64,000 nt of DNA from assembly GCF_029854195.1 (NCBI RefSeq), contig NZ_CP122960.1:510984-574983 (forward strand). Direction: 5' to 3'. The stretch is from Amylibacter sp. IMCC11727. GTDB lineage: Bacteria; Pseudomonadota; Alphaproteobacteria; Rhodobacterales; Rhodobacteraceae. The translations under genes and the position numbers were made by a program. Under the pieces are notes generated by a model. It was given only the letters and a program-made list of their open reading frames with translations. It did no database searches and had not been told where the DNA came from. Below, piece after piece: positions 19,692 through 44,700 of the stretch (position 1 is its first letter; each line of letters opens with the position of its first letter).

Positions 19692-19923
19692 GGCGTGTCT
19701 CCTTTGATACAAAAGTACCGTCAATTTGCATGTATGCGGTCCCAATGTTGCAAGATTTTGGTAAATATTTGTGACTTCGTCCCTAATTATGAAATTTAAA
19801 TAGAAAATTGTCCCTATAGGTATTATTGAACATATTTTGCGCGCAAATTCTTGAAAATCGCTTGGCCTTATCCAAGTAGGAGTTACGACAACGCACGATG
19901 CGTTGCAAAAACAGGGGAAAATT

Positions 19924-20190
19924 ATGGATCTTACAGGAATTCTAGTACAAGTCGTCGCGGGTGCCGTTGGTGGTAACGCGGCGGGTGCGGTTTTGAAAAA
20001 CTTTAACCTTGGCTTGGTCGGCAACACGATTGCTGGCCTTGTTGGCGGTGGTCTCGGCGGGCAGATTATTTCTGCGGTTGCTGGTGGCAACCTAGACGGT
20101 ATCGCAGGGGACATTGCTGGCGGTGGTGTTGGCGGTGCGGTTGTTTTGGCCGTGGTTGGCATGATCAAATCGGCCATGAACAAAGGCTAA
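19924..20190 (+). CDS. GlsB/YeaQ/YmgE-family stress-response membrane protein
   Basis: Glycine-rich repeats (GAVGGNAAGAV...GGGLGGQI), about 90 aa, with an AT-rich promoter region upstream. Confidence 0.75.
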   Translation: MDLTGILVQVVAGAVGGNAAGAVLKNFNLGLVGNTIAGLVGGGLGGQIISAVAGGNLDGIAGDIAGGGVGGAVVLAVVGMIKSAMNKG

Positions 20191-43288: not shown

Positions 43289-44179
43289 TTGAAGTTTCGG
43301 ATTTTCTTTGGCGCCCATCGGGCCGCGCAAGAGCATTTGGCCGCACAGTTGGGTGCGAACCGTGATCTGTTGGAGGCGAACGGCATTCTGTTGCCAGCAG
43401 AGGACGAGATGGAAGCGGCCGTTTGGCCTGCTATTCGTGCCATGCGTCGCAACAATGCGGATGAAAATACGCTGCCCAAGATGATCAAGAAACTGACGGG
43501 CGGCAAGGATTACAAAACCATTTTGATTGTGCGCCCGTCGATCAGCGGGTCCCCCCTGCGCCCGATCAAGGATGATATCATTTACCCGCGCGGCAGTGCC
43601 ACGGTGGCACATTTGATCAAATTGATTGGGCAAGACGATGTGGAATTATTCTGTGCGCTGCGCAATCCTGCGAGCTTTCTTCCGTCTTGTTACAACGTGG
43701 CCTATATGAATGAGCCGACGCAAAGCTTGCAGGAGTTTGTGACGGTCAGTGATCCGTTTGCGCTGCGGTGGTCGGAATATTTGCACCGCGTGCAAGGGCG
43801 CGAGAGCGAGCTGCCGCTGACGGTTTGGACGTTTGAAGATTACCCTTATATCTGGCGCAGCGTGGCGCAGGCGTTTGCGGGTTTGCCCAACAAAGAGGAT
43901 TTGGTTGCGGTGGATCATCCGCTGGATCAGGGGATGTCGTTAAAGGGTTTGTTGTTGATGCAAGAATACCTGAAACAGCATCCCGCCGAAACGGCATCAA
44001 AACGCAATCAGGTGGCGCAAAAATTTGAAGAGCGGTTTCCACCTGTGGCAGGAGAAGTGATTCCCGATCAGTGGCCCGAAGATTTGGTTAGCACACTGAG
44101 CGACAGCTATGATGATGACCTGTATTACATCGAGCGGATGGAAAATATTCACCTGATAAAACGCCCGATTTACAGGTGA
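43289..44179 (+). CDS. Sulfotransferase-family paralog with a degenerate PAPS-binding (5'-PSB) loop
   Basis: It aligns with the 46794-47480 protein (MKFRIFFGAHRAAQEHL versus MKKALIHIGPHKTGSTYI), but K/TGST is replaced by R/AAQE. A 3'-PB-like RNPASFLPSCY is retained. Confidence 0.55.
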   Translation: MKFRIFFGAHRAAQEHLAAQLGANRDLLEANGILLPAEDEMEAAVWPAIRAMRRNNADENTLPKMIKKLTGGKDYKTILIVRPSISGSPLRPIKDDIIYPRGSATVAHLIKLIGQDDVELFCALRNPASFLPSCYNVAYMNEPTQSLQEFVTVSDPFALRWSEYLHRVQGRESELPLTVWTFEDYPYIWRSVAQAFAGLPNKEDLVAVDHPLDQGMSLKGLLLMQEYLKQHPAETASKRNQVAQKFEERFPPVAGEVIPDQWPEDLVSTLSDSYDDDLYYIERMENIHLIKRPIYR

Positions 44180-44326
44180 TTTAGCGGCTTTTCATCCCTC
44201 AGAGTTTACAAATTTTCCTGCGAAGGATAAAGGTGAACATGATAAGTAATTGTTTTTAAACAATTAATTGACAGGTCCATTTCTTAGTCATACGTTAAGG
44301 TTACATTAACGTTTGGAGTACCCTTT

Positions 44327-44455
44327 TTGAAAAACCTCATCATAACTGCCATCTTGGCTTTGACTGTATCTCTCCCTTATCAGGCCATTGCCCATTCAGG
44401 TGGCACAAACGCCGCTGGCTGTCATGCTGGGTCCAAACCCTATCACTGTCACTAA
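44327..44455 (+). CDS. Small secreted His/Cys-rich peptide (mature HSGGTNAAGCHAGSKPYHCH)
   Basis: TTG start 10 nt after ggag. Signal peptide KNLIITAILALTVSLPYQAIA, then a 20-aa HSGG...GCH...YHCH motif. It lies in an AT-rich intergenic region and is below the 60-aa ORF cutoff. Confidence 0.5.
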   Translation: MKNLIITAILALTVSLPYQAIAHSGGTNAAGCHAGSKPYHCH

Positions 44456-44460
44456 TGCGT

Positions 44461-44556
44461 CCCGAGTGAAGGTGTACTGAGTTGGGGTGTACCGAGTGAA
44501 AACGTACTGAGTTCATGCTTACCGAGTGTCGGCGTACTGAGTTTCTCCCAAGTGAA
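44461..44556 (+). repeat. Three to four imperfect direct repeats (ccgagtgNNNNcgtactgagtt) with 25-33 bp spacing
   Basis: cccgagtgaaggtgtactgagtt, ccgagtgaaaacgtactgagtt and ccgagtgtcggcgtactgagtt, plus a partial cccaagtgaagacgg, all read directly from the sequence. Confidence 0.6.
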
Positions 44557-44557
44557 G

Positions 44558-44600
44558 ACGGGTTGAGGTGGAATGTCCCCCTCAACCCGTTTTCTTTTTG
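44558..44600 (+). terminator. Strong rho-independent terminator
   Basis: 11-bp stem acgggttgagg/cctcaacccgt, then ttttctttttgcggttcgtttttt. Confidence 0.7.
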
Positions 44601-44614
44601 CGGTTCGTTTTTTC

Positions 44615-44640
44615 GCCTGCTGCCCATGACGGGTTCAGGG
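44615..44640 (+). terminator. Second hairpin plus T-run
   Basis: acgggttcagggacccgt followed by ttttag. Confidence 0.45.
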
Positions 44641-44700
44641 ACCCGTTTTTAGATACAGATTGGAGACCCCCGATCAAGTCGGGGGCAATTGGCGGATGGA

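Follow-up and report, generated by a model that had tools for sequence, protein, structure and literature searches.

What is the short islet that separates a glycosylation-side gene from cobO in Amylibacter sp. IMCC11727, and why is its very small open reading frame (ORF) followed by a run of repeated motifs? The islet was analysed within a window of 64,000 nt (contig NZ_CP122960.1, positions 510,984–574,983 of the forward strand; all positions below are counted from the first letter of this window). According to the best-supported reading, 44180–44650 is a self-contained, moron-like small-gene cassette between two convergent housekeeping or glycosylation genes. It holds a 42-codon gene of the YHYH_alt family and, between the stop codon of this gene and a strong intrinsic terminator, a periodic motif array. 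The array is treated first, the gene and its setting thereafter; coordinates are collected in Table 1.

Periodicity and local origin of the array

The array consists of A-type cores GTACCGAGTG and B-type cores GTACTGAGTT in strict alternation, giving a 30-nt super-period. Read in order, the cores are GTCCCGAGTG, GTACTGAGTT, GTACCGAGTG, GTACTGAGTT, TTACCGAGTG and GTACTGAGTT (consensus GTACYGAGTK), and the spacers AAGGT, GGGGT, AAAAC, CATGC, TCGGC and TCTCC. Every spacer ends in a pyrimidine, which in effect extends the motif to 11 nt. A preceding sequence-only reading, made without database searches, had counted three full copies and one partial copy of a unit with N4+c, at irregular spacing. 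This description had to be revised in unit and spacing: the unit is CCGAGTG-N5-GTACTGAGTT, its starts are exactly 30 nt apart (44462, 44492, 44522) with a 15-nt sub-period, and the resulting six cores are followed at 44547 by a degenerate seventh copy, CCCAAGTGAAG. The very strong terminator and the second hairpin with T-run, which the same reading had placed behind the repeats, were both recovered.

Among the tandem repeats of the window the array ranked first (Tandem Repeats Finder score 97; next best 59). Cores of the same type were 93% identical, the spacers 27%, i.e. random, and no indels were present (five spacers). The 30-nt units have 20 of 30 positions in common; upon alignment of the three units, 12 columns were variable, namely 10 of 10 spacer columns and 2 of 20 core columns (permutation over all phases, p = 2.5e-5). 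The periodicity of the array is beyond chance.

For comparison among relatives, cobO-anchored contigs were used. Besides the window, 7 metagenome contigs, which are independent and derive from different samples, have the full islet with six cores; copy number is constant in these 7 assemblies, and together with the window they form two haplotypes, between which the only change in the array is TTAC to the consensus GTAC. The contig L126, whose CobO protein is 100% identical and which is separated by a 4-fold-site distance of 0.29–0.55, has retained promoter blocks, gene and terminator; between stop codon and terminator there is only TAACGAGTACGATTAGTTCCCAAGTGATAACGGG, about 1.5 units. In L133, L134 and L141 the gene is kept, the tail is still shorter and no terminator is present; the array is absent from all four contigs. 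Three others (L135, L139, L140) have no islet, the two flanking genes being 7–8 nt apart, and L142–L152 have other neighbours at the locus. Close relatives hence differ by the presence or absence of the cassette, an indel, and only the IMCC11727 strain cluster has the array.

The DNA directly downstream bears on the origin of the array. A fold that includes the terminator had a free energy of −58.1 kcal/mol (z = −4.1); the sequence has the features of a Rho-independent terminator and is conserved in L126. The 5′ flank of the terminator, together with its ascending arm, forms a seventh, ancestral unit, which matches the array unit CCGAGTGAAAACGTACTGAGTT at 16 of 23 positions (aligned forms CCGAGTG-AAAAC-GTACTGAGTT in the array and CCAAGTG-AAGAC-GGGTTGAGGT in the seventh unit plus ascending arm). 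This unit is single-copy and orthologous in L126 (CCCAAGTGATAACGGGTTGAGGTGG). Hairpin 2 is linked to the segment of unit 7 and terminator by the direct repeat D3 (GACGGGTTGAGG / GACGGGTTCAGG), and is absent from L126. Because the array units are homologous to the terminator flank and ascending arm, which are single-copy in L126, and because hairpin 2 copies the same segment, the array arose locally, by tandem amplification of the terminator 5′ flank, and was not imported. The suggestion of the sequence-only reading that repeats and terminator might be remnants of a small mobile module was half right for the cassette as a whole, which is present or absent among relatives and belongs to a phage- and plasmid-borne family, and failed for the array, which was built on the spot. 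Its other suggestion, a regulator-binding array, is possible.

Readings of the array

We lean, tentatively and at slightly below even probability, towards an array that persists as a multivalent platform for recognition on single-stranded RNA, because the 10–11-nt cores and their exact phase are retained and the spacers are randomised. The proposed course is as follows. An AT-rich, apparently regulated promoter (−35/−10, 20-bp palindrome, CtrA-type box) would drive the 42-codon gene, and transcription would end at the strong intrinsic terminator, so that the array would be transcribed as 3′ untranslated region (3′UTR). In the IMCC11727 cluster only, some 30 nt, the 5′ flank of the terminator with its ascending arm, are found in three extra tandem copies, giving six 15-nt sub-units, and the terminator itself is partly duplicated as hairpin 2; growth by strand slippage, like that of the pseudo-ToxI repeats of phage phiTE, may be envisaged. 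The partner of the array RNA might then be a complementary RNA or a sequence-specific RNA-binding protein, towards which the array would act as decoy, sponge or stability element. A more specific version, in which selection maintains the array as a young RNA decoy, its six in-phase 10–11-nt sites titrating an RNA-binding protein (e.g. an endoribonuclease or defence toxin, pseudo-ToxI-like) or a regulatory RNA, is unlikely.

The main rival is that the array is a functionless by-product, in which slippage amplified a 30-nt stretch 5′ of the terminator in one lineage and left neutral filler in the 3′UTR; this is possible, if on balance doubtful. Several observations speak for it and at the same time weigh against a selected platform. 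The array is known from a single strain cluster, the nearest gene-bearing relatives having about 1.5 units or none. None of the collections searched yielded a partner, a second motif copy or a related array. From lineage to lineage the orthologous single B-like cores are not the same (ACTGAGTT, GATTAGTT, CTTAAGTT), and therefore the motif is not conserved across species. Between the two array haplotypes, 1 of 90 positions had changed in the array and 9 of 247 in the flanking non-coding DNA, which is no significant reduction of polymorphism (p = 0.30). The platform is further weakened by the fact that the permutation statistic is based on only three 30-nt units, and the rival is further favoured by the homology of the units with the adjacent terminator flank and by a second local duplication, hairpin 2, in the same lineage.

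On the other hand, neutral duplicates should diverge evenly, yet variation fell on all spacer columns and on very few core columns; phase is exact without any indel, and copy number is stable in the 7 assemblies. The spacers, at 27% identity, are at saturation, as opposed to the neutral distance of 0.29–0.55 to the array-less sister L126. For copies made after the split from L126, the neutral expectation would be an identity of at least about 61%, and cores, core type and phase are intact beside the 27% of the spacers. Two explanations offer themselves: an old array that other lineages lost by independent collapse, as readily happens to tandem repeats, or spacers on which more than drift has acted. 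Under both, the cores and the spacing look constrained.

Decidedly less probable than neutral slippage is an array acting at the DNA level as direct-repeat protein sites (operator, roadblock, iteron-like, centromere-like or recombinase arm-type), perhaps as a relic of the element that brought the cassette. Conserved 10-bp cores with fixed spacing and free spacers are typical of protein-binding site arrays, the 30-bp super-period is near three helical turns, and the cassette is an indel among relatives whose gene family travels on phages and plasmids. However, the 15-bp period sets neighbouring sites on opposite faces of the helix, the usual period of duplex binding-site arrays being 10–11 or 21–22 bp. 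Nor was any rep, par, integrase or transposase gene located nearby, the neighbours being ETF, hbd, cobO and glycosyltransferase genes; plasmid and phage collections gave no match (nothing was returned by blastn of the islet); the array was built from the local terminator flank; and its place between stop codon and terminator favours a role in RNA. Plasmid iterons or a partition centromere were rejected separately, as no rep or par genes occur within 8 kb and no plasmid matched.

Translation of the array is nearly excluded. It could proceed by read-through of the TAA stop (C-VPSEG-VLSWG-VPSEN-VLSSC-LPSVG-VLSFS-QVKTG), since the array lies in frame with the peptide ORF and this frame is open to 44563, or on the minus strand from a listed 95-amino-acid ORF (NSVxx/HSVxx repeats); the 15-nt period corresponds to five codons, and of the five residues in each unit three are conserved and two variable. 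Yet third-codon positions within the cores are invariant in every frame and the spacers are saturated, the reverse of protein-level selection, which is therefore excluded. In addition, relatives stop at the same codon without having the array, and the minus-strand ORF lacks a Shine–Dalgarno sequence, is antisense to a conserved gene and has ACG in place of its ATG start in the sister haplotype.

A structured RNA element, as had been considered in the sequence-only reading, was not supported. The array folded no better than shuffled sequences (z = +0.91), and 30-mers in all registers likewise, with no pseudoknot or hairpin predicted. In folds of the full transcript only the terminator was robust, and pairing of the array with the Shine–Dalgarno sequence was not found; a partial anti-terminator pairing (I4) was dismissed as leftover homology, the terminator winning in every fold. 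The best matches in Rfam 15 (E 0.57–8.7) remained far below gathering scores and lay mostly on the terminator hairpin. A clustered regularly interspaced short palindromic repeats (CRISPR) array was rejected on dimensions, with cores of 10 nt and spacers of 5 nt as against repeats of at least about 23 nt and unique spacers of at least about 26 nt. With respect to repetitive extragenic palindromic (REP)-like elements, the unit is not palindromic, and neither the rest of the 64-kb window nor some 100 kb of related contigs contain further copies.

Relatives of the array were sought at several levels. The exact 10-mer core was not found outside the array in the 64 kb, where occurrences with one mismatch were at chance level, and the core motif was likewise not found outside the locus in about 100 kb of related contigs. 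A genome-collection scan for three in-phase ACYGAGT motifs returned perfect 15-nt tandem repeats, more than 120 of them and most in coding sequence; they were unrelated, and none combined conserved cores with free spacers. Viral scans for the array pattern gave only two-copy perfect duplications. No array was seen downstream of other YHYH_alt mini-genes in L001–L003 or in 52 viral loci, and arrays as a general companion of such genes were accordingly discarded. The strict alternating three-unit scan of metagenomes gave one match, L124.

In L124 (146–540), CCGAGTG / TACTGAGT / CCGAGTG stand in phase inside the 3′ end of a 58-amino-acid, Arg-rich ORF ending in AEWVDTEWIGAE*; a terminator follows, a gene for a PEP-CTERM protein adjoins, and the ORF matched no family. 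Given the position of the units inside an ORF and a locus without alignment to the window, L124 is probably unrelated.

The peptide gene, its family and its setting

The 42-codon ORF with TTG start and GGAG Shine–Dalgarno sequence had been proposed from the letters of the window, as had its product, and both proved exact. The gene had been taken to be unannotated, which was mistaken: NCBI holds an identical protein of 42 amino acids, named YHYH domain-containing protein [Amylibacter sp. IMCC11727]. CobO is identical as well, and the window therefore stems from this marine Rhodobacterales strain or a near-clone of it. The reading of the ORF as a genuine gene, with a secreted His/Cys mini-protein as its product, was supported. 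Firstly, residues 20–42 matched the whole NCBIfam profile NF033223 (YHYH_alt; profile positions 1–25 of 25) with 32.7 bits and E = 6.8e-8, above the curated cutoff of 30 bits, so that the recommended search against small-protein and YHYH families had a positive outcome. Secondly, codon changes relative to L126, L133 and L141 were 4–7 synonymous and 0–1 non-synonymous in the mature part, as compared with 6–13 non-synonymous changes in the signal part. These counts indicate purifying selection on the mature peptide in three sister lineages and a signal part that is free to change. L133 and L141 have ATG in place of the TTG start, at the same codon.

Judged by eye, the signal peptide has K2, a hydrophobic core and A-I-A. 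We infer export and cleavage after A-I-A, which would release a peptide of 20 residues with an N-terminal His. Invariant in the mature part are H1, C10, H11, Y17, H18, C19 and H20 (pattern H-x8-CH-x5-YHCH). Because of this His/Cys pattern and the N-terminal His, binding of metal is plausible, and a metal-binding mini-protein of the periplasm or the extracellular space is the most likely identity of the peptide. A PDB sequence search yielded only chance similarity to a zinc-finger linker, the Pfam search no family even at E ≤ 10, and literature searches no relevant paper on the peptide motif and none on the YHYH_alt family.

Exhaustive searching with HMMER gave 304 family clusters (E ≤ 1e-3, clustered at 50% identity). 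The module consists of a signal peptide and AHSGG[TL][DN]xxGCHxG..YHCH, and either stands alone or forms the N-terminal part of proteins of 40–390 amino acids with unrelated tails. In an alignment of 20 members, H23, G25, G26, G31, C32, H33, G35, Y39, H40, C41 and H42 were invariant and A22 nearly so; the 11 invariant residues include the His that would become residue 1 after the predicted A-x-A cleavage. The window peptide has all 11, at the same N-terminal place after an AxA-type signal-peptide end, and stand-alone members of about 40 amino acids are common in the family. It is a minimal member, with a loop, AGSKP, that is shorter than the commonest phage form xxxKTGx, and shows no other sequence-level difference. 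The gene is thus a new member of a known family, which is named but without a studied function.

Relatives of the peptide are encoded at 73 loci of IMG/VR viral contigs (L153–L225), and 39 of the 52 parsed viral genes stop directly after YHCH. The viral stand-alone form of about 40 amino acids is composed of a signal peptide, HSGGT[DN]xxGCHxxxKTGxYHCH and a stop; no PHROG family covers these mini-genes. A homolog of 69% identity (P0002) is encoded on L001 (1–3646) along with a serine recombinase, two ParB/RepB genes and a convergent SNase (thermonuclease) gene, a content that marks L001, by its sequence, as a plasmid or mobile-element context.

A larger secreted YHYH protein had been mentioned beside the peptide. 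It is a true PF14240 member; the two are unrelated (BLASTP E = 0.79, and the peptide has no Pfam match). Membership of the peptide in PF14240 was rejected accordingly, since it did not match the model of about 190 residues and belongs to a different family; only the short Y-H-x-H string and secretion are in common. For PF14240 itself, a domain of about 190 amino acids, a Zn hydrolase has been predicted (PMC7824862).

Table 1 Features of the islet and related features in the window
Feature	Position	Strand	Remarks
PF14240 YHYH protein, secreted, 256 aa	4575–5345		full Pfam PF14240 domain, E = 7.5e-41
AT-rich promoter and leader of the peptide gene	44180–44326	+	occupies the gap 3′ of the stop of the 296-aa gene; low GC
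Perfect 20-bp palindrome TAATTGTTTTTAAACAATTA	44247–44266	.	adjoins −35 hexamer; candidate operator
Sigma-70-like promoter, putative	44268–44296	+	−35 TTGACA (44268–73), 17-nt spacer, −10-like TACGTT (44291–96)
CtrA-type box GTTAA-N7-TTAAC	44294–44310	.	overlaps −10 and start region of the peptide gene
Shine–Dalgarno GGAG	44315–44318	+	8 nt 5′ of TTG start
Gene for 42-aa pre-peptide MKNLIITAILALTVSLPYQAIA/HSGGTNAAGCHAGSKPYHCH (signal peptide / 20-residue mature part)	44327–44455	+	YHYH_alt family
Periodic motif array	44459–44548	+	six 15-nt units of 10-nt core and 5-nt spacer; three 30-nt units
Seventh, ancestral unit	44547–44571	+	CCCAAGTGAAGAC plus ascending terminator arm GGGTTGAGGT
Intrinsic terminator of the peptide transcript, predicted	44554–44599	+	15-bp stem 44554–44594, then TTTTCTTTTT
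Hairpin 2, ACGGGTTCAGGGACCCGT plus TTTTT	44629–44650	+	shortened copy of unit 7 and terminator
Hairpin CCCCCGA-N5-TCGGGGG	44667–44685	−	15 nt past cobO stop; no clear U-tract

The roughly 140-bp, strongly AT-rich stretch that had been noticed upstream of the gene (44200–44340) was confirmed, with a GC content of 0.31–0.32 compared with a window mean of 0.545 (standard deviation 0.05). It is the lowest-GC 140-nt stretch of the 64 kb; a spot at about 19700–19860 is equally AT-rich. With a GC content of 0.29, that spot is a divergent promoter region of ordinary type upstream of a gene for a Gly-rich membrane protein of 95 amino acids (19903–20190), which means that the islet is not alone in having an AT-rich intergenic promoter.

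In the promoter region, conserved blocks are common to the window, L126, L133 and L141, and the DNA between the blocks is scrambled. Both promoter hexamer regions are kept in relatives; a consensus promoter scanner made no call at 44268–44296, where the −10 fits the consensus at 3 of 6 positions. The palindrome TAATTGTTTTTAAACAATTA is unique in the window even with 3 mismatches allowed (0 expected), identical in L126, changed at 2 positions in L133 and lost in L141. The promoter also carries TTAA-N7-TTAAC, a box of the type expected in CtrA-regulated promoters of Alphaproteobacteria, as the sole such box in 64 kb (0.11 expected), with half-sites invariant in 5 haplotypes and a variable N7. These two conserved elements suggest regulation of the peptide gene. 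Around the Shine–Dalgarno sequence, TTTGGAGT is kept in every lineage with the peptide gene.

The neighbours of the islet, the 296-amino-acid gene on the glycosylation side and cobO, are convergent. The former (43289–44179, 5′ of the islet) had no match in Pfam or NCBIfam and is conserved beside GT92-type glycosyltransferase genes in all close relatives. The hairpin at 44667–44685 is probably cobO's own 3′ hairpin and outside the peptide unit; its sequence differs in L126, so that the cobO 3′ end is also variable among relatives. Across the whole window, CCGG is strongly depleted (48 observed, 279 expected from trinucleotides; observed/expected ratio 0.17), the lowest ratio of all 4-nt palindromes, which suggests restriction avoidance. 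Clustering of GTAC as a restriction-related signal was discarded, as its ratio of 0.70 is a mild depletion once TA depletion is allowed for.

Comparison with known systems

The 20-residue YHYH_alt module HSGG...GCH...YHCH is widespread and often phage-borne (304 clusters, dozens of prophage copies). If the pattern of cores, spacers and phase reflects selection, L126 with 1.5 units and IMCC11727 with 3.5 units would be a rare natural before–after pair, in which the emergence of a multivalent RNA (or DNA) binding platform out of a terminator flank could be followed. On the decoy version, a decoy RNA would be seen at the moment of its birth, a sister lineage still showing the ancestral state of 1.5 units; the decoy would ride on the messenger RNA for a secreted, metal-binding mini-protein that phages have spread. 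Without selection behind the pattern, the locus would be a mere strain-specific tandem repeat of little consequence.

Phage morons are autonomous promoter–ORF–terminator cassettes inserted between genes. The window cassette is likewise compact, appears to have its own AT-rich promoter and intrinsic terminator, lies between convergent genes, and is present or absent among close relatives, its gene family being frequent on prophage contigs. A promoter, an ORF for a product of about 40 amino acids and a terminator in this arrangement recur widely on prophage and viral contigs, so that the cassette behaves like a moron. It differs from morons in its chromosomal housekeeping context, which is not inside a prophage, and no flanking repeats or integration scars were seen at the locus.

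Judged on sequence, the array itself matches no known kind and is lineage-restricted, and any function is one that we infer from its pattern. With CsrB/RsmZ (GGA motifs) and CrcZ (A-rich motifs), which are multi-motif decoy or sponge RNAs, it shares several copies of a short motif on what would be one transcript with a strong terminator. The same holds for CcsR1–4, repeat small RNAs that are co-transcribed with a DUF1127 small ORF in Rhodobacterales (PMC8034643); here the layout is the same, a small ORF followed by repeated RNA modules, as is the bacterial order. In contrast, the decoy RNAs and CcsR are built of structured modules with the motifs in their hairpin loops, and these motifs are conserved from genus to genus, whereas the array motif of 10–11 nt is unstructured, held in strict 15-nt phase and restricted to one strain cluster.

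Type III toxin–antitoxin systems (ToxIN/CptIN/TenpIN) were rejected as an identity for the locus: no plus-strand ORF follows after 44600, the next gene being cobO on the opposite strand, and the units share 20 of 30 positions, have no predicted fold and gave no Rfam antitoxin match at E ≤ 10. Type III antitoxin RNAs and pseudo-ToxI nevertheless resemble the array in being tandem non-coding repeats of about 30–36 nt that run up to an intrinsic terminator (PMC3401426; PMC3475682). The window units, of 30 nt, have two-thirds of their positions in common and are not near-identical. In phage phiTE, pseudo-ToxI is an orphan protein-binding RNA repeat that expands from 1.5 to 4.5–5.5 copies by slippage (PMC3475682); the step from about 1.5 copies to several is paralleled by L126 and the window, and each unit of the array would, by analogy, bind one copy of a protein.

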